Below, piece by piece: positions 27,187-57,362 of a stretch of DNA of 64,000 nt (the first letter of the stretch is position 1; every line of letters starts with the position of its first letter). The stretch covers positions 19,325 to 83,324 of the IMG/VR virus record IMGVR_UViG_2706796350_000001; one strand, written 5' to 3'. The DNA is from a virus. Its lineage: Duplodnaviria; Caudoviricetes. A model generated the notes under the pieces. The model had not been told where the DNA came from. It ran no database searches and saw only the letters and a list, made by a program, of their open reading frames with translations. The translations under genes were made by a program, and so were the position numbers.

Positions 27187-27654
27187 TCACTTCTTCTTGC
27201 GACCGCGAGTCTTCTTCTCGACCTTCACGAGCTGCCACGAAGCCTGAACCTCGTACTCACCCGTTGCCAGCATGCGGGAAAGAATCGACGAGACCATCGA
27301 AGGCGTGTACTTGTCCTTGCCGGTACGAGTGGTCAGCCCGTTGACCTTCTTGATTTCCTTCTCGGCCAGTGCGTTGATTTCCGCACGGTCCGAAGCGCCG
27401 GTCACGAGGGTGGTGGCGATGATGGCCGAATCGGTGCCGACCTGGAAGCCCTCATCGGTGTACTCGATGGGATGCGGTTCGTAGGTCTGAGCCGTCTTCT
27501 TGGCGGCGGGCTTCCGAGTGGTCGCCTTGGTGGTCGTGGCCTTCTTGTTGGCCGGTGCTCGCTTTGCCGGGGTGGCCTTCCGAGCAGTGGTGGTCTTCTT
27601 GGTGGCAGGAGCCGAACGCTTACGGGGTGTCGGCTTCTTCTTCGCTGCGGCCAT
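27187..27654 (-). CDS. Histone-H1-like Lys/Ala-rich tail fused to a small helical DNA-binding-like domain
   Basis: N-terminal ~55 aa of KKPTPRK/PAKR/PAAKK repeats; basic C-terminus. Confidence 0.75.
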   Translation of the reverse strand: MAAAKKKPTPRKRSAPATKKTTTARKATPAKRAPANKKATTTKATTRKPAAKKTAQTYEPHPIEYTDEGFQVGTDSAIIATTLVTGASDRAEINALAEKEIKKVNGLTTRTGKDKYTPSMVSSILSRMLATGEYEVQASWQLVKVEKKTRGRKKK

Positions 27655-38419: not shown

Positions 38420-38482
38420 TTGCCAACCCCGGTAATTACTCAACGTTCGACAACACCAAACACCGAAAGAGGTAAATCCAAC

Positions 38483-39235
38483 ATGGCTGCAAAGAGCAAC
38501 ACCACCGCTGACTTCACCGAGTTCGTTCGTTCGCTGCGCGATCTGTGCGACCAGTTCCTCGGGGACGACACCAAGGCCCCGAAGTCGAAGAAGGCGGACG
38601 CCGACGACGAGGATGACGCCACCGAGGCCCCCGGCCCGAAGTGGTCGGAGGCGGCACTGAAGACGATGCCGCTCGCGAAGTTGCGGGAACTCGCAATCGC
38701 AGAGGGCTACGAAGAGGATGAGGTGTCCGAAGCCAAGAAGCCGGAGTTGATCGAGGCCCTGCTCGACGATGACGAGTCGGAAGAGCCGGAAGACGAAGAC
38801 GCCGAAGACGACGAGTCGGAGGACGAGGACGAAGGCGACGAGGAAGACGAGGATGAAGAGGGGGAGGTCGACGAGGACGAGGAACTGGAAGCCGAGCGCG
38901 AAGAGCTGATGGGCCTCTCGCTTGCCAAGCTGCGTAAGACGGCACGCGATGACTACAACGCAACTCCCGCCGAGCTGAAGGGCCTCGACAAGGAGGGCAT
39001 CGTCGACCTGATCCTCGGGGCCGAAGAAGAAGACGACTCGGATGTGGGCATCGACGAAGAGAGCGATGAGGACGAGGACGGCTACACCGAAGACGAGCTG
39101 GACGGCATGGAACTCGCAGAACTGCGTGAGGTTCTGGACGAGTGGGAGGTCGACTACAGCCCGAAGGCACGCAAGGCGACGCTCATCAAGCTGATCCTGG
39201 AAGCCCAGGACGAGGAAGAGTACGAAGACGAGTGA
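38483..39235 (+). CDS. Highly acidic protein with three HeH/SAP/Rho_N-like repeats
   Basis: Three M.LA.LR.......K..LI..IL repeats separated by D/E tracts; SD GAAAGAGG before ATG 38483. Confidence 0.75.
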   Translation: MAAKSNTTADFTEFVRSLRDLCDQFLGDDTKAPKSKKADADDEDDATEAPGPKWSEAALKTMPLAKLRELAIAEGYEEDEVSEAKKPELIEALLDDDESEEPEDEDAEDDESEDEDEGDEEDEDEEGEVDEDEELEAEREELMGLSLAKLRKTARDDYNATPAELKGLDKEGIVDLILGAEEEDDSDVGIDEESDEDEDGYTEDELDGMELAELREVLDEWEVDYSPKARKATLIKLILEAQDEEEYEDE

Positions 39236-51238: not shown

Positions 51239-51829
51239 ATGGCCGAACAGATCATCATCGGGATTGACCCCAGCTCAGTGAAGATAGCGTTGGTTGTCAC
51301 ATACGGGAGCGATACCTCCCGTGTGGACGCCAATATTTACAAACTTCGCAAAGAGCAGGACTTCGCACTACGTTGCGGGTTCGCGTACAAGACCGTGAGC
51401 CGGGAACTGAAGCGACTTGCCGCGAGGCACCCCGATGCTGAACTGTTCGCGTTCATCGAAGAGCCAGTGGTGGGCCGTGGTGGTGCCTATTCGACCATCT
51501 CGCAGTCGAAAGTCCACGGTGCCATCATCGCCGCCTGTTACTGCTCTGGCGTCGTCGTGAAGACGAGCGGGGTCAACAACGCCACGGCCAAGAAACAGAT
51601 CGTCGGAGCAGGTAACGCATCCAAGACCGACATTCGGAGGTGGGCAAAGGTTTACTGGGGCAACCTTGAAGAGCAGATCGTGAAGTTCAACAAGGGAGAC
51701 CAGCAGGACATCGCAGACGCCGGGATGATCAACCGGTATGGATGGAAAGTCGTCCAGACTCAGAACAAGTTGGCACGTTACAAAAACAAGCGGAGCGTGA
51801 AGCGCCGCAGGATCACACGAAAGGTGTAG
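51239..51829 (+). CDS. ruvC: RuvC-like Holliday junction resolvase
   Basis: IIIGIDP, FIEEP, AKK.IVG.GNASK, DIADA. Confidence 0.88.
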   Translation: MAEQIIIGIDPSSVKIALVVTYGSDTSRVDANIYKLRKEQDFALRCGFAYKTVSRELKRLAARHPDAELFAFIEEPVVGRGGAYSTISQSKVHGAIIAACYCSGVVVKTSGVNNATAKKQIVGAGNASKTDIRRWAKVYWGNLEEQIVKFNKGDQQDIADAGMINRYGWKVVQTQNKLARYKNKRSVKRRRITRKV

Positions 51830-51833
51830 AGAA

Positions 51834-53396
51834 GTGACCACAGCTAAGAAGCCGCCGCTCCGCAAGAAGAAGCCGAAGGCCATCTCGGTCATCGAGACAA
51901 AGCCGATCCAGATGGCAGAGTTGCAGATGTACCACAAGAATCCGCGAATCGGCAATGTCAATGCCATCGCCGCGTCTTTGGAAGAGTCCGGCCAGTTCAA
52001 GCCGATCGTGGTGAACATCGGCACGCACACCAGCCGTAAGAACGAGATTCTGGCCGGTAACCATACCTTCATGGGGATGAAGAAGCTCGGTGAGAAACTG
52101 ATCTACGCATCGTTCGTGGACGTGGATGAGCAACAGGCGACAAAGATCGTCCTGGCCGACAATAAAGTGGCGGACCTCGGTACCTACGATGAGAAGATCA
52201 TCGCGGACCTGTTCGAGTCCCTTCCTGACATCGCCGGTACGGGTTACTCGCAGGAAGAGTTCGAGGACATCATGTCCAGTGTCTCTGTCGACATTTCCGA
52301 TTCCTCAAAGTACGACTCCAATGTCGATGTGGACAACCTCATCGGTGGCATCAGCATGGAGAACGAGGAGCAGGAACGTCGCGAAGACACGATGACGGAT
52401 CGTGAGCGGTACAAGGCCGAGCGCGAGTCGGACGACGACGGCGAAGAGGAACGGTCCACTCGCATCACGGCATCCGACGACACTGACGAAGAGCTGTCAG
52501 TGGACGCAGACGAGCAGCAGATCGACAAGCTCGCGGAACTTCAGGTCGTTCTCGAAATGAAAGAGGACAACGTTTGGAAGAACCCAAACGACTTTTACGG
52601 TATCCCCCGTATCCCCGAACGATCGATCCTCAAACAGTTCCCCAAGGACATCGTGACGTGGATCGGTCACCAGTACACCGAGCAGAAGCCGGGACGCCAC
52701 TACCTGTACAACTACTCGCTGGGCGGCACCAAGAATCTCGACTTCAGCAAGACGATCCTCGCGTTCAACACCTACGACACCAAGTTCATCTCGTGGTGGG
52801 AGACCCCGGCGTACAACTTGGCCCGTCTCATGGTGAAGGGACTCACGACTGCCGTGGTCCCCGACTTCAGCTACTACTACACCGAGGCGCGAATCCATCA
52901 CCTGTGGGGTGTGTACCGAGCGAACTGGTTGGGCCGATTCTTCGCAGAGGCCGGTCTTCAGGTCGTCCCGCGTCTTCAGTGGGACTTCCGTGATCCCGAG
53001 TTCATGGAGACCGCACTGCCGGGTGTCCCGCTCAACACACCGACCCTCGAATGTTCCATTCAGAACATCAACGAAGAAGAGGACCGCAAGAAGGCGGCGA
53101 AGCAACTTCGCGACCTGTTGGAGCACATCAAGCCCGAGCAGTTCATGGTCTACGGCGGCAACCCTGCACGCCGTCTCGTGGAGGAAAGCGGGTGGAAGGG
53201 CGAAGTGCTCCACGTGCTCTCATACGCCAATGCACGGCGTGAATCCGGTGCTTACGACCGCAAGGAGGGCAAGGCATCGTTGACCGCCAAGCAGAAGAAG
53301 GAGCTGCGCGAGAAGTACGGTGCCAAGGAGTCTTCGGTTCGCGAAGACGGGGAAGATGTCGACGAGAACGAATACATCGACGAGGACGACATCTAG
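51834..53396 (+). CDS. ParB-like N-terminal domain + acidic linker + DUF4417-like domain
   Basis: Y.KNPR..NV.AIA.SL...GQ.KPIV, ILAGNH, ADN; C-terminal D..F..WW..P, PDFSYY, W.VYR..W.G, VVP.L.W. Confidence 0.8.
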   Translation: MTTAKKPPLRKKKPKAISVIETKPIQMAELQMYHKNPRIGNVNAIAASLEESGQFKPIVVNIGTHTSRKNEILAGNHTFMGMKKLGEKLIYASFVDVDEQQATKIVLADNKVADLGTYDEKIIADLFESLPDIAGTGYSQEEFEDIMSSVSVDISDSSKYDSNVDVDNLIGGISMENEEQERREDTMTDRERYKAERESDDDGEEERSTRITASDDTDEELSVDADEQQIDKLAELQVVLEMKEDNVWKNPNDFYGIPRIPERSILKQFPKDIVTWIGHQYTEQKPGRHYLYNYSLGGTKNLDFSKTILAFNTYDTKFISWWETPAYNLARLMVKGLTTAVVPDFSYYYTEARIHHLWGVYRANWLGRFFAEAGLQVVPRLQWDFRDPEFMETALPGVPLNTPTLECSIQNINEEEDRKKAAKQLRDLLEHIKPEQFMVYGGNPARRLVEESGWKGEVLHVLSYANARRESGAYDRKEGKASLTAKQKKELREKYGAKESSVREDGEDVDENEYIDEDDI

Positions 53397-53418
53397 AGTT
53401 TGGTACGTTGCGAATGCA

Positions 53419-53438
53419 CCACACATGTGAATGTGTGG
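53419..53438. promoter_or_regulatory. 20-bp palindrome (operator or hairpin) upstream of the histone-like gene
   Basis: CCACACAT-gtga-ATGTGTGG. Confidence 0.5.
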
Positions 53439-53534
53439 CACAATCGCCAGTACGTGTTCAACACGAGGGTCGGATCACCGTAATGAACGAGCGTTGCGGG
53501 TCCGGTTCCAACCAACACAGTGAAGGAGATGGAC

Positions 53535-53882
53535 ATGCTGAACGACGTTCTCAGCATCGAGGTCGATCCGACCAACACCGACGACGACATCACCGTCGAG
53601 GGCGCGGGTAACGGCACCGGTGGCGGCGGCGGTCGCAAGGGCGGCGGCTCCAAAAAGCGTTCTGCCAAGAAGGGCCGAAGCTCGAAGAAGACGTCTCGTA
53701 AGGGCGCTCCCGCCAAGAAGGGTCGCAGCTCGAAGAAGTCGACCGCTACCAAGCGTGGTCGTGGGGCACCGGCCAAGAAGGGACGTGGCGCTCCCGCGAA
53801 GAAGGCAGCCACCAAGCGTGGCGCTCCGGCCAAGAAGACGGCACGTAAGCAGCCTCCGGCCAAGAAGCGTCGTAACGGGTAA
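53535..53882 (+). CDS. Histone-H1-like basic protein with acidic leader and Gly linker
   Basis: SD AAGGAG 6 nt before ATG 53535; five PAKK repeats, RGRG motifs. Confidence 0.85.
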   Translation: MLNDVLSIEVDPTNTDDDITVEGAGNGTGGGGGRKGGGSKKRSAKKGRSSKKTSRKGAPAKKGRSSKKSTATKRGRGAPAKKGRGAPAKKAATKRGAPAKKTARKQPPAKKRRNG

Positions 53883-53931
53883 CCGAGGTCGCCCCGTCTA
53901 GGTGACGGGCATCCGGCGCACAACAGCAGCA

Positions 53932-53970
53932 AGGCCCCGCCCTCACTCATAGGGGGCGGGGTTTTGTTGT
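53932..53970 (+). terminator. Rho-independent terminator
   Basis: AGGCCCCGCCC / GGGCGGGGTTT stem followed by TGTTGTT. Confidence 0.8.
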
Positions 53971-53995
53971 TCTTGTAAACGATCAAGGAGAGGTC

Positions 53996-54478
53996 ATGTT
54001 CATCGAACACGTGCCGGTCGACGAAGTTCACGAGCGCTGTGGCTTGTTCCTGAAGACGCCGGGAATCACGACGGTCCCGCATACAGAGGCAGTTCGCCCC
54101 ATTCACTACGTCGGTGAGGTCATTGAGTTGCCCAACCGGGCTGATGACACGTTAGACAACTTTGTAATACATCAGAGTGATGTCGACAAGGCGCTGAAGT
54201 GGGTAGGTCGGACCCATGAGGAAGTGCTTGGGTTCTGGCACACACACCCGAGCGGATCGTTGCGTCATCCATCCCAGGCAGACCTAGACAGCGTTTCTCT
54301 CGGAGACAAGGCGTGGTGGCATTGCGTTTTCATCTGTGAGACAGGCACGATGTCTTGGTACGACTACTACGAGAACCAACATGACTTCAAGGACAGTTGG
54401 GGAGACGATGTTCCCTGGCGTCTGGTGAAGTTGCGGAAGAAGAAGTTCCTCCGCAAGAGGGCGTATAGCACCGCCTAG
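53996..54478 (+). CDS. JAB/MPN+ (Mov34) metalloprotease domain protein
   Basis: ERCG, LGFWHTHP.....PSQAD JAMM motif; SD AAGGAGAGG. Confidence 0.88.
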   Translation: MFIEHVPVDEVHERCGLFLKTPGITTVPHTEAVRPIHYVGEVIELPNRADDTLDNFVIHQSDVDKALKWVGRTHEEVLGFWHTHPSGSLRHPSQADLDSVSLGDKAWWHCVFICETGTMSWYDYYENQHDFKDSWGDDVPWRLVKLRKKKFLRKRAYSTA

Positions 54479-54505
54479 CAATAACCGAAATAGGAGATCA
54501 CAGAA

Positions 54506-55408
54506 ATGACCGCACCATTCCCAGAAGGTCCGTACGATCTGAATGCCAGCCAGTACAGCATTCTCGAATGGATCGAAATCCCCGATCCGGCAGACAGCAC
54601 TCGTCGGTTCCGTGTGAACATGACGTTCCTGCTCTCGAACTACAACTGCACGTTTGGCGCTGGGTGCCCTGGTATCAAGCCGCAGATCGAGAATGGGCGA
54701 CATGATGCCGGATGCTGTGTGCAGGGAGCCGGGTACCACGGGCCGGAAGATGTTGCTAACGTCGCAAAGTGGTTCAAGAAGCTCACGTTCAAGGACATGC
54801 CGGAAGACAAACTCCGTCATGCACGTGAACACGGGTGGTCGGTGTCCAACGCGAGCGGGGAGCCGTACAAGACCCGCAAGCTCAATGGCGCGTGCATCTT
54901 CGCCAACGAGAAGTCGGACGACCCCGATGCACCGCCGTCAGGTTGTGCGTTTCACCATCTCGCTAATCGCCTTGGCGTGAGCCATGTGGAGGTGAAGCCG
55001 ACGACGTGTTGGCAGGTTCCGTTGCTCGTTGGCGAGTACGGCGGCGAAACGTCTGCACAACCAGACCACGACCTCATCACGATCACGGCGCAAGGACGTG
55101 GGGAGTGGGGCGGTGTCTACCCCGACGACTACAGCGACCTCGATCAGGTCACGGACGGTCGATACCTCGGTTGGTGGTGCACCGACACGCCCGACGCGTA
55201 CAACGGCAAGCAGAAGGCGTACGTCTACTTTGAGACCGAGCTTCGGAAGATCATGGGCGATCCCGCCTACGAGCAGTTGGCACGCGTTGCGGTGGCATAC
55301 GGCAAACGACGGTCCCAGATGCCCGGAGAGCGCGTGAACGGGGGTGCGCCGACAGTCGCCACCGTGCAGTCCCTCGTCGCGTCTCTGAAGGCCAAGCAGA
55401 AGGCGTAA
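54506..55408 (+). CDS. DUF3109/YkgJ-like cysteine-cluster protein, host-like
   Basis: C.FG.GC...GCC..GA, GACIF, GCAFH, KP..CWQ.P, WWC; 8 Cys; resembles a conserved actinobacterial family. Confidence 0.75.
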   Translation: MTAPFPEGPYDLNASQYSILEWIEIPDPADSTRRFRVNMTFLLSNYNCTFGAGCPGIKPQIENGRHDAGCCVQGAGYHGPEDVANVAKWFKKLTFKDMPEDKLRHAREHGWSVSNASGEPYKTRKLNGACIFANEKSDDPDAPPSGCAFHHLANRLGVSHVEVKPTTCWQVPLLVGEYGGETSAQPDHDLITITAQGRGEWGGVYPDDYSDLDQVTDGRYLGWWCTDTPDAYNGKQKAYVYFETELRKIMGDPAYEQLARVAVAYGKRRSQMPGERVNGGAPTVATVQSLVASLKAKQKA

Positions 55409-55423
55409 TGGCATGATGATGGT

Positions 55424-55466
55424 GGGTCGCGCTCCGGTTTCACGGCCATGTGCCGGAGTGCGGCCC
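55424..55466. terminator. GC-rich hairpin without U-tract
   Basis: 14-bp stem 55424-55437 / 55453-55466 with 2 G-U pairs. Confidence 0.5.
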
Positions 55467-56246: not shown

Positions 56247-57362
56247 ATGAGTGCAATCCGGTACGGAAAGCGCATTGATCTTCAGGGGAACCAGATTCTC
56301 AACGCGGTAGTCCATTCGGACGCCGGTCTGCCGACCCCGACAGCCGCCCTCACGGGTTCATTGCGGTACAACACGTCCGACAGCCGCCTCTACGTCTGCA
56401 ACGGCACGACGTGGGAACTGAGGGCCACTAACGCCGATGCCCTTCAGGGATTCAGCCCCGCACAACTCCGTGACCGTGGAACGCACACCGGCACGCAGGA
56501 CGTGGCAACGATCAGCGGACTCGACGCCAAGATCGATAGTCGTCCGGTCTCGAACTTCGCCGCAGCCACCAAGGACGTGTCGCTCGGCAACTTCAAGATC
56601 ACGAATCTTGCAAACGGTGTGAGCAACAACGACGCCATCAACGTCAGTCAGCTCGACGCAGTTCGTCAGATCGCGATGAGTGCGGCAGTCGGCACCGCGA
56701 TCAAGGCACCGGTTCTGGCCGTGGCGATCACCAACCAGAACCTCGCAGCGGTGGGCACCATCGACGGCGTGACCATCCCGACCTCGGGCCGATTCCTGTT
56801 GGCTGGACAGACTGACTCGACGCAGAACGGCATCTACTACAAGAACGGCGGTGGAGCGGCCATCCGTGCCACGGACGCCGACGAGACGGGTGAACTCCTG
56901 CCCGGTACGCAGGTGTTCGTCACGCAGGGCACCGCGAACGGGGACTCGTCGTGGGCCATCGTGTCGGATGCACCCATCACCATCGGAGCATCGGCACAGC
57001 AGTGGGCCAAGGTGCCGGGTTCCTCGGGCACTTCGTACACGTGGGGTAACGGCCTACAGAACAGTGCAGGCACCATCTCGGTCAAGGCCGGTGTGGGCAT
57101 CAACGTCTCGGACGGCAACGTCAACATCGACACCGCCCTCGTGGTCCGCAAGTCGGCACAGGCGGTACCGGGAGGCACTAGCCCCGTCACGATCACCCAC
57201 GGGCTGAACACGAGCGACATCATTCAGGTGCAGCTCCGTGAAGTCGCGACTGGCGATCTCGTGTTCGTCGGCGTTACAGTCACCGGAGCGAATACCATTT
57301 CGCTCGACTTCGATGCGGCGACGGTCCCTGCTGGCACCTACCGCGTTGCGGTCGCCGGATAA
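56247..57362 (+). CDS. Fibre/whisker-like structural protein
   Basis: HTGTQ...TISGL, NLANG....DAIN..QL, TIDGV......FLL.GQTD..QNGIY....RATDAD; C-terminal THGLNT module. Confidence 0.75.
   Translation: MSAIRYGKRIDLQGNQILNAVVHSDAGLPTPTAALTGSLRYNTSDSRLYVCNGTTWELRATNADALQGFSPAQLRDRGTHTGTQDVATISGLDAKIDSRPVSNFAAATKDVSLGNFKITNLANGVSNNDAINVSQLDAVRQIAMSAAVGTAIKAPVLAVAITNQNLAAVGTIDGVTIPTSGRFLLAGQTDSTQNGIYYKNGGGAAIRATDADETGELLPGTQVFVTQGTANGDSSWAIVSDAPITIGASAQQWAKVPGSSGTSYTWGNGLQNSAGTISVKAGVGINVSDGNVNIDTALVVRKSAQAVPGGTSPVTITHGLNTSDIIQVQLREVATGDLVFVGVTVTGANTISLDFDAATVPAGTYRVAVAG

Follow-up and report, generated by a model that had tools for sequence, protein, structure and literature searches.

A three-gene module of actinobacteriophages that may make and mature a polycationic, protamine-like DNA-binding protein

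Introduction

Adenovirus protein pVII is cut by the adenoviral protease, and the internal proteins IPI-III of phage T4 are cut by gp21 after an N-terminal targeting sequence. Cassettes for ribosomally synthesized and post-translationally modified peptides (RiPPs) consist of a leader-core precursor, a modifying enzyme and a leader peptidase, with an attenuator hairpin after the precursor gene. Here we describe a phage locus that can be compared with both, in a 64,000-nucleotide stretch of DNA (the window) that makes up the right-hand part of a virus record of 83,324 bp (IMGVR_UViG_2706796350_000001). The window sequence is that of Gordonia phage GMA6. Between positions 53,535 and 55,408 it encodes a strongly basic protein, a JAB/JAMM metallopeptidase and a protein with eight cysteines (the Cys protein, 100% identical to A0A0K0NLF2). 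We judge it an evenly balanced proposition that this module makes and matures a polycationic, histone-H1/protamine-like DNA-binding protein. The analysis followed up a reading of the window made from its letters alone (the sequence-only reading), which had proposed a leader-core precursor that is cleaved by the JAB enzyme and modified on lysines by the Cys protein.

Conservation of the Module

The trio of basic protein, JAB peptidase and Cys protein is present in GMA6 and in at least 10 other actinobacterial phage lineages, and its adjacency recurs in 12 distinct phage contexts with two gene orders. It was found in the window, in 11 GenBank Gordonia phages and in loci L006, L007, L008, L010, L011, L044 and L045. 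The contexts beyond the Gordonia phages are metagenomic and IMG/VR contigs that were located with the Cys protein as anchor, and the identity of their Cys proteins to that of the window ranges from 70% down to 34%. The 11 Gordonia phages match the basic and Cys genes at ~66% nucleotide identity, and all module genes are annotated there as ‘hypothetical’. Phages FlyingTortilla and Gray have the order ParB, basic, Cys, JAB, in which the JAB and Cys genes are swapped compared to GMA6; in the seven contig loci listed above the basic open reading frame (ORF), the JAB gene and the Cys gene are mutually adjacent. A hidden Markov model (HMM) built from the JAB proteins of the module detected a JAB gene in 10 of the 11 relatives' loci (11 of 12 phage contexts with the window included), but in none of the 22 cellular loci that carry a Cys-protein homologue. 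A basic ORF was seen in the window and in all 11 relatives' loci for which DNA was available.

Three metagenomic representatives (P0073, P0130 and P0088; 412-440 aa) are fusions of JAB and the Cys protein with intact JAMM residues, and in several loci the JAB and Cys genes abut or overlap, which suggests translational coupling. One such overlap affects a gene call: the JAB gene of L006 (4251-4703 of a Logan contig) was missed by the source gene caller and extends past the called start of the Cys gene (377 aa), so that this start may have been placed too far upstream.

The basic gene of the window is followed by an intrinsic-terminator-like hairpin on the plus strand (53920..53985), with a stem formed by 53920-53942 / 53954-53976 and then the T-tract TTTTGTTGTT. 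A simple terminator scan missed this hairpin because its loop is 11 nt long. A strong GC hairpin, mostly with a T-rich tail and with unrelated DNA sequence, lies 3' of the basic gene in all 10 loci that were folded. Such a placement, ahead of the enzyme genes, would be expected if the substrate is made in abundance and the enzymes in catalytic amounts, and the element is a putative attenuator between the gene for the substrate and those for the enzymes. Because of the fusions, the overlapping or abutting genes and the hairpin after every folded basic gene, the functional link between the three genes is strong, and they form a real module. Synteny had been named beforehand as a test that could refute the sequence-only reading; with 12 phage contexts, order swaps, fusions and a conserved hairpin, the outcome was strongly in its favour.

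The Basic Protein

The basic protein (53535-53882, plus strand) is 115 aa long. Its start was set at the ATG at 53535, since an AAGGAG ribosome-binding site lies 6 nt upstream and relatives have the same MLNDVL start. In phage Gray, gp114 (L003:4904-5314) is annotated with a GTG start as a protein of 136 aa; a conserved MLNDIL 33 codons downstream matches GMA6 and FlyingTortilla, so that the deposited version is probably too long at its start. Three parts can be distinguished in the protein of GMA6. The acidic leader (aa 1-22, MLNDVLSIEVDPTNTDDDITVE; 53535..53600) has seven Asp/Glu and zero Lys/Arg residues. It is conserved in the Gordonia phages and L008, and its distal motif is kept in all leader-bearing relatives. 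The Gly-rich linker (aa 23-38; 53601..53648), with 11 Gly in 16 residues, is the proposed region of JAB cleavage and opens with the invariant G23 of an (E/S/T)-G-(A/S)-G motif in the alignment of relatives. The rest of the protein is the polycationic core (aa 39-115; 53649..53882 including the stop codon). Its 77 aa contain 22 Lys and 11 Arg (43% Lys/Arg, 29% Lys), five PAKK repeats and zero hydrophobic or aromatic residues, with a net charge of about +32. The core had been described before as rich in Lys/Arg with PAKK repeats, which is correct, and as roughly one-half Lys/Arg, which is slightly too high.

The basic tails of the relatives are of too low complexity for alignment, and the sole conserved part consists of three hydrophobic residues, E/S/T, an invariant Gly and A/S. 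This motif reads DDDITVEGAG in GMA6, EDIAVEGAG in L008, ATVVVEGAG in L006, DDALVVSGAA in L011, EVFASGSG in L010, GDVILATGS in L043 and EDIDGAGGG in L044. In L045 a single ORF comprises an agmatinase-like domain, an acidic stretch that ends in DMDTDDIIEGG and a basic tail; the leader motif thus occurs also as an internal junction, as is expected of a processing site. The basic protein of L009 has no leader and starts with MGGTAGGGKK at the Gly linker, 4 codons past an in-frame stop. No JAB was found in this 16.7-kb contig, and the Cys gene still adjoins the basic gene. Compared with the leader-bearing loci, this indicates that leader and JAB are gained or lost together and that the Cys protein is retained along with the basic tail. 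The conserved motif and the leaderless protein at a locus without JAB support the division into leader, linker and core that was proposed earlier.

Library scans gave no Pfam or PHROG match for the basic protein. The core matches the NCBIfam histone H1-like model hist_H1_lk_Burk weakly (E 0.0048, 17.2 bits against a cutoff of 80), and its likeness to histone H1 and HupB tails is compositional only.

The JAB Peptidase

The second gene (53996..54478, plus strand) encodes a JAB/JAMM metallopeptidase of 160 aa that matches Pfam Prok-JAB (PF14464) with an E-value of 7.6e-9 and 35.9 bits (cutoff 25). The orthologues of L006, L008, L010 and L011 likewise exceed this cutoff. As a homologue search with the JAB protein returned this protein alone, the alignment was assembled from the loci; the JAMM residues E13, H82, H84, S93 and D96 are invariant in nine sequences, including the three fusions. 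The best match of the AlphaFold2 (AF2) model (pLDDT 78) in a Foldseek search against the PDB was PfJAMM1-SAMP2 (5lda; E 1.2e-5, probability 1.0), followed by Cap3, Rpn11, BRCC36 and bacterial deubiquitinases of ubiquitin-like proteins (Ubls). A weak match to the NCBIfam desampylase model was also obtained (E 5e-6). The Prok-JAB score above cutoff, the intact catalytic residues and the MPN fold of the model confirm the earlier identification of this gene as encoding a JAMM metalloprotease. The matches to Cap3 and CBASS JAB models are weak and far below the family thresholds. PADLOC likewise gave only weak JAB matches, so that nothing points to a defence or counter-defence system of a known type.

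PfJAMM1-type relatives hold an extended tail that ends in Gly-Gly and cut after it. By analogy, the JAB of the module may bind the strand-like leader and cut at or after G23-A-G25. From the sequence evidence the balance tips slightly towards JAB as the enzyme that cleaves the leader. Among the neighbouring genes examined, none was noted that encodes an E1, an E2 or a beta-grasp protein, so that JAB would be a pro-protein convertase and not a deubiquitinase.

The Cys Protein and Its Relatives

The third gene (54506..55408, plus strand) encodes a protein of 300 aa with eight Cys, all of which are invariant in 32 homologues. By sequence, its closest family is the actinobacterial Rv0495c/DUF3109 family (PF11307), which fits the name DUF3109 given to this 8-Cys protein in the sequence-only reading. 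The Pfam model PF11307.13 (DUF3109) scores the Cys protein below threshold (16.7 bits vs 33.5) and matches 7 of the 32 family members; the newer PF11307.14 (‘Rv0495c’ in Pfam 38, precomputed) is listed for the Cys protein and for all 57 homologues of a word-indexed search. A phmmer search against 1.8 billion representatives yielded 626 relatives. The closest cellular ones have 40-44% identity over ~89% of the length, are 270-275 aa long and occur in metagenome-assembled genomes of the Gaiellaceae/Thermoleophilia type and in other Actinomycetota. When searched with the family alignment, 21 of 151 sampled Actinomycetota genomes contained the family. PF11307.13 finds it in only one of these 151 and, among 14 control genomes, in Bacteroides only. 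The structural neighbour of the Cys protein in the ESM-Atlas is an ‘Rv0495c-like’ cluster (TM 0.73). The AF2 model of the Cys protein (pLDDT 85, pTM 0.86) has no credible fold match in the PDB (best Foldseek E 0.28; best Z in a wide VIA-align search 2.6), so that the PDB gives no functional clue. Inteins (Hint domain) were found in P0061, P0071 and P0142 exactly between W224 and the invariant C225 (window ~55177/55178). The insertion context is ...GWW, then C-intein-HN, then CTDTPDAY, and C225 would be the +1 splicing nucleophile. This placement suggests that the C225 site is functionally important. In two cellular loci of the Gaiellales type an FmdB-type Zn-ribbon protein with a Gly/Lys/Ser-rich tail follows the Rv0495c homologue (L005:5840-6157 and L016:3797-4078); it is a possible cellular partner or substrate of that homologue.

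FliB is a [4Fe-4S] flagellin lysine methylase with eight conserved Cys (PMC8598068), and the phage DUF3109 protein DpdM catalyses N-methylation of preQ1 in DNA at its aminomethyl group (10.1101/2023.04.13.536721); the substrates of both are primary amines. Comparison of a 157-sequence profile of the Cys protein family with 16 PF03692 proteins in hhalign gave a score of 30.3 (E 4.4e-4, probability 33.5%, 93 columns), against 7.6-14.2 for the controls, which were a reversed template, 20 column-shuffled templates and an unrelated JAB template. Six Cys were aligned in order, namely the first Cys, the CC pair and those of GxCxF, C-x-(F/I)-(H/Y) and [KR]PxxC. With an alignment of 32 sequences the result was not significant, either against E. 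coli YkgJ alone or against the 16 PF03692 sequences. Foldseek against BFVD placed a phage protein with a ‘Zinc- or iron-chelating domain’ at rank 3 (E 9.7e-3, probability 0.72), and the named ESM-Atlas clusters nearest outside PF11307 are all YkgJ, with a weak feature score of 0.77 that is a lead only. On these comparisons the Cys protein is probably a remote homologue of the YkgJ/CxxCxxCC group, but they do not establish that it is a member of PF03692 or an orthologue of FliB. By analogy with FliB and DpdM, the Lys-rich core (29% Lys) is an amine-rich candidate substrate of the Cys protein, and lysine methylation may be suggested as its activity, but only tentatively. No TGT/DpdA homologue is present in the GMA6 genome. 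This makes a role of the DpdM type unlikely, and 7-deazaguanine modification was rejected on this ground as the principal explanation of the module.

Genomic Context

Downstream of RuvC is the usual location of the module. In the window a RuvC-like resolvase (51239..51829, plus strand; phrog_159, E 8e-14) is followed by a ParB_N + DUF4417 protein (51834..53396, plus strand; DUF4417 E 5.6e-18, ParB_N E 4e-4, phrog_940 E 8e-108). RuvC is found at the same position in L002, L003, L009 and L010. The ParB_N-DUF4417 gene is upstream in L002, L003, L006-L011, L044 and L045, wherever upstream sequence exists, and in most loci it directly precedes the basic gene. Residues 28-163 of this protein have a weak PADLOC match to ‘Type II methyltransferase’ (E 7e-9). 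Between the ParB stop codon and the basic gene lies an imperfect palindrome (53410-53426 / 53431-53447) with a perfect 8+8 core, CCACACAT-GTGA-ATGTGTGG, and a 4-nt spacer. Relatives have no common counterpart, so it is not a conserved part of the module; it may be a hairpin at the end of the ParB gene or an operator. A closing hairpin with 14-nt arms and no T-tract lies at 55424-55437 / 55453-55466 (plus strand). The three adjacent ORFs, the palindrome before them, the separate terminator of the basic gene and the closing hairpin are all located where the sequence-only reading had put them.

Downstream, the module abuts late structural genes. The product of 56247..57362 (plus strand) is a virion protein of the head-decoration or fibre type (phrog_2647 ‘head decoration’, E 3.7e-123). 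It resembles, by eye only, the peptides of GMA4 orf66, which was found in virions by mass spectrometry (MS) (PMC4524720).

An agmatinase-like gene of the arginase family occurs in five lineages: it is a neighbour of the module in L007, L011, L043 and the P0130 contig, and in L045 it is found as a fusion with the basic tail. Coordinates of this gene just upstream of the basic gene are L045:1553-2935, L007:3027-3956, L011:1498-2496 and L043:216-1136; the L011 copy is closest to agmatinase (TIGR01230, 168 bits vs a cutoff of 174). Agmatinase makes putrescine, which is another counter-ion of DNA. The recurrence of this gene suggests that polyamine supply is linked to the polycation.

Two further proteins of the window have unusual composition. 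At 27190-27651 (minus strand), in the divergent early region, a second protein has an H1-like stretch rich in Lys, Ala, Pro and Thr N-terminal to a folded domain; it has neither the leader motif nor a PHROG match. At 38420-39235 (plus strand) a polyacidic protein (37% Asp/Glu) adjoins a gene resembling that of single-stranded DNA-binding protein (SSB), with only weak C-terminal PHROG matches, Arc-like or endonuclease VII-like.

Proposed Pathway and Alternative Explanations

We propose that the basic protein would be made in excess, as its gene has its own ribosome-binding site and a terminator-like hairpin at its 3' side. It would be synthesized as a precursor, in which the short acidic leader, with a strand-like motif at its end (three hydrophobic residues, E/S/T and Gly-Ala/Ser-Gly), is followed by the Gly-rich linker. 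JAB would recognise this leader much as related enzymes recognise ubiquitin-like proteins by their Gly-Gly tail, cut at the Gly motif and free the basic tail. The Cys protein would be a metal-binding enzyme (probably Fe-S or Zn) of the same pathway, probably in complex with JAB, and would act on the Lys/Arg-rich tail; by analogy with FliB and DpdM we infer that N-methylation of amines is its likeliest chemistry. The mature polycation would then coat or condense DNA. Its likeliest target is the phage genome, for which it could serve as counter-ion during replication or packaging. Charge neutralisation or condensation of phage genome DNA is favoured because of the agmatinase-like neighbours and the virion genes downstream; a role in taking over the host nucleoid or in protecting phage DNA is almost as possible. 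A wider version of the proposal would make Rv0495c/DUF3109 proteins in general FliB-like metal-cluster N-methyltransferases of Lys/Ala/Pro-rich protein tails. The phage version would methylate the protamine-like protein before its release and Rv0495c of Mycobacterium tuberculosis would methylate tails of the HupB/HBHA type. Such mycobacterial tails are lysine-methylated, and the paper that reports this names no enzyme (PMC8467707). We regard this wider version as doubtful.

Several observations weigh against the proposed pathway. The charge of the leader (about -7.5) is insufficient to neutralise that of the core (about +32), which leaves the need for a leader unexplained. The covariation of leader and JAB depends on one contig (L009), which is itself a fragment, and the P0130 contig has no called basic gene between its arginase-family gene and the fusion. 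The published MS analysis of GMA6 virions lists three major proteins only, which are orf20, orf29 and orf43 (PMC4524720). Since trypsin would destroy such a polycation, this analysis is uninformative for the basic protein and cannot decide between the phage genome and the host nucleoid or DNA protection as target. For the Cys protein, no HMM match to PF03692 was found at E <= 10 in 32 family members, nor any relevant NCBIfam match at E <= 10, FliB included, and the hhalign probability against PF03692 is only 33.5%. Its Cys spacing, C48-x5-C54-x15-C70-C71, differs from CxxCxxCC in YkgJ and CX4CX3CC in FliB. The label ‘FliB/YkgJ-like’ of the sequence-only reading is thus supported only in part, by the remote similarity to YkgJ that exceeds the hhalign controls and not by an HMM match to PF03692 or FliB. 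Furthermore, cellular Rv0495c homologues stand alone, with no JAB or basic neighbour, and the sole published phenotype of Rv0495c is a redox imbalance with altered reactive oxygen species (ROS) and NAD+/NADH in an M. tuberculosis deletion mutant, which is pleiotropic.

The processed polycation could also be an intracellular effector that is not packaged, and either compacts or silences the host nucleoid or shields replicating phage DNA from restriction or CRISPR, the leader keeping it inert until JAB acts. The genes indeed end a block for recombination and replication (RecA, RuvC, ParB) outside the head module, and another protein with an H1-like stretch is encoded in the early divergent region. 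That the basic protein was not reported by virion MS would fit as well, but this method could not have detected it. As structural genes follow directly downstream and the agmatinase-like neighbours suggest a supply of counter-ions, we consider an unpackaged effector possible, though somewhat unlikely. It is less likely that the basic protein is a mere neighbour and that JAB and the Cys protein act elsewhere, for example on a host protein or in deubiquitinase-like counter-defence against CBASS Cap2/Cap3 or Bil. The weak matches of JAB to Cap3/CBASS models would agree with such a role, but they are far below the family thresholds. The Cys family stands alone in cells and one fusion-bearing contig has no basic gene called beside the fusion; on the other hand, every phage locus of which the DNA was scanned has the basic gene as a neighbour, the basic protein without a leader comes from a locus without JAB, and the JAB-type motif of L045 lies exactly at the domain junction.

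Two further explanations concern mainly the Cys protein. It could be a DpdM-like enzyme that N-methylates DNA bases, with JAB and the agmatinase-like enzyme in the same hypermodification pathway and the basic protein unrelated. DpdM itself, a DUF3109 protein of phages, has preQ1 in DNA as the substrate that it methylates, putrescine for bases of the putrescinyl type could come from the agmatinase-like genes, and ParB/DUF4417 and recombination genes are nearby. This seems highly improbable, since the GMA6 genome is without TGT/DpdA, its module has no adjoining agmatinase-like gene, the DUF3109 model matches the Cys protein weakly, and both the JAB fusions and the protein-type cleavage motif indicate a protein substrate. 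It also seems very unlikely that the Cys protein is a host-derived redox or Fe-S sensor like Rv0495c, which tunes host physiology and is linked to JAB and the basic protein in regulation only. The eight invariant Cys and the altered ROS and NAD+/NADH of the M. tuberculosis deletion mutant, in the one experimental paper on the family, point in this direction. However, a sensor would leave unexplained why the protein is fused to a peptidase and why it is retained beside a polycation gene across phages at 34-70% identity, and the redox phenotype, being pleiotropic, does not point to a biochemical activity.

Comparison With Known Systems

Literature searches returned no description of this module, and those for DUF3109/Rv0495c gave the DpdM paper and the redox-phenotype preprint only. 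The module is here defined by a polycationic precursor protein, a JAB peptidase and a Cys protein of the Rv0495c type, which an agmatinase-like enzyme often accompanies. If the proposed pathway is true, it would be an unusual use of a JAMM enzyme, as a dedicated pro-protein convertase without ubiquitin-like partner. It offers a concrete candidate substrate, and with that the first testable handle, for the Rv0495c family, which is present in about one-seventh of the sampled Actinomycetota genomes and in M. tuberculosis. Should the Rv0495c proteins be methyltransferases, then the phage module would be a genomic clue that assigns a function to a conserved mycobacterial DUF. If the polycation is packaged or coats DNA, it would be a phage counterpart of adenovirus pVII and protamines, and would bear on how phages of polyamine-poor hosts neutralise the charge of their DNA.

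The JAB protein shares its fold and the E...HxH...S..D zinc site with the JAMM/MPN+ isopeptidases PfJAMM1/HvJAMM1, Cap3, Rpn11 and Mec+/CysO. Its proposed substrate resembles the C-terminal tail of a Ubl in that it is an extended strand ending in small residues (E-G-A-G). In contrast to the substrates of these isopeptidases, what precedes the proposed cleavage site is a leader of ~22 aa, or in L045 an enzyme domain, and not a beta-grasp Ubl, and some of the phage JABs are fused to an Rv0495c-like domain. The phage Cys protein is 40-44% identical to Rv0495c/DUF3109 (PF11307) proteins of Actinomycetota and has the same eight Cys, but in phages the family members are fused to JAB or coupled with it and lie beside a polycation gene, whereas none of the 22 cellular Rv0495c loci has a JAB. 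Like the group of FliB, YkgJ and DpdM it is a Cys-cluster protein, with eight conserved Cys, and in the hhalign comparison with PF03692 its motifs align in the order C...CC...C...C...[KR]PxxC. It differs in that it is roughly three times as long as YkgJ, carries a helical domain at its C-terminus and has another spacing of its first Cys.

The PAKK/AAKK composition of the basic core is like that of the tails of HupB/Hlp, HBHA and histone H1, but an HU fold and a coiled-coil domain are absent from the phage protein. Like pVII and the T4 internal proteins, it is a basic protein with a short N-terminal pro-segment and a virus-encoded protease, by which cleavage is proposed here. It is not related to these proteins in sequence, and in place of a capsid maturation protease there is a dedicated JAMM enzyme, together with an additional Cys-cluster enzyme. 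As in RiPP cassettes, the precursor gene is followed by a hairpin and then by the enzyme genes, and the leader motif is conserved and the core variable. The Pfam, PHROG and NCBIfam scans found no RiPP recognition element (RRE), other RiPP domain or known RiPP enzyme class in the module. The core is a disordered polycation of 77-140 aa (77 aa in GMA6) and not a small bioactive peptide, for which reason ‘RiPP-like’ is meant here as an analogy. The arrangement of the module thus combines two known kinds, viral pro-protein maturation and RiPP-like cassettes, and uses for this a JAMM peptidase and a protein of the Rv0495c family.

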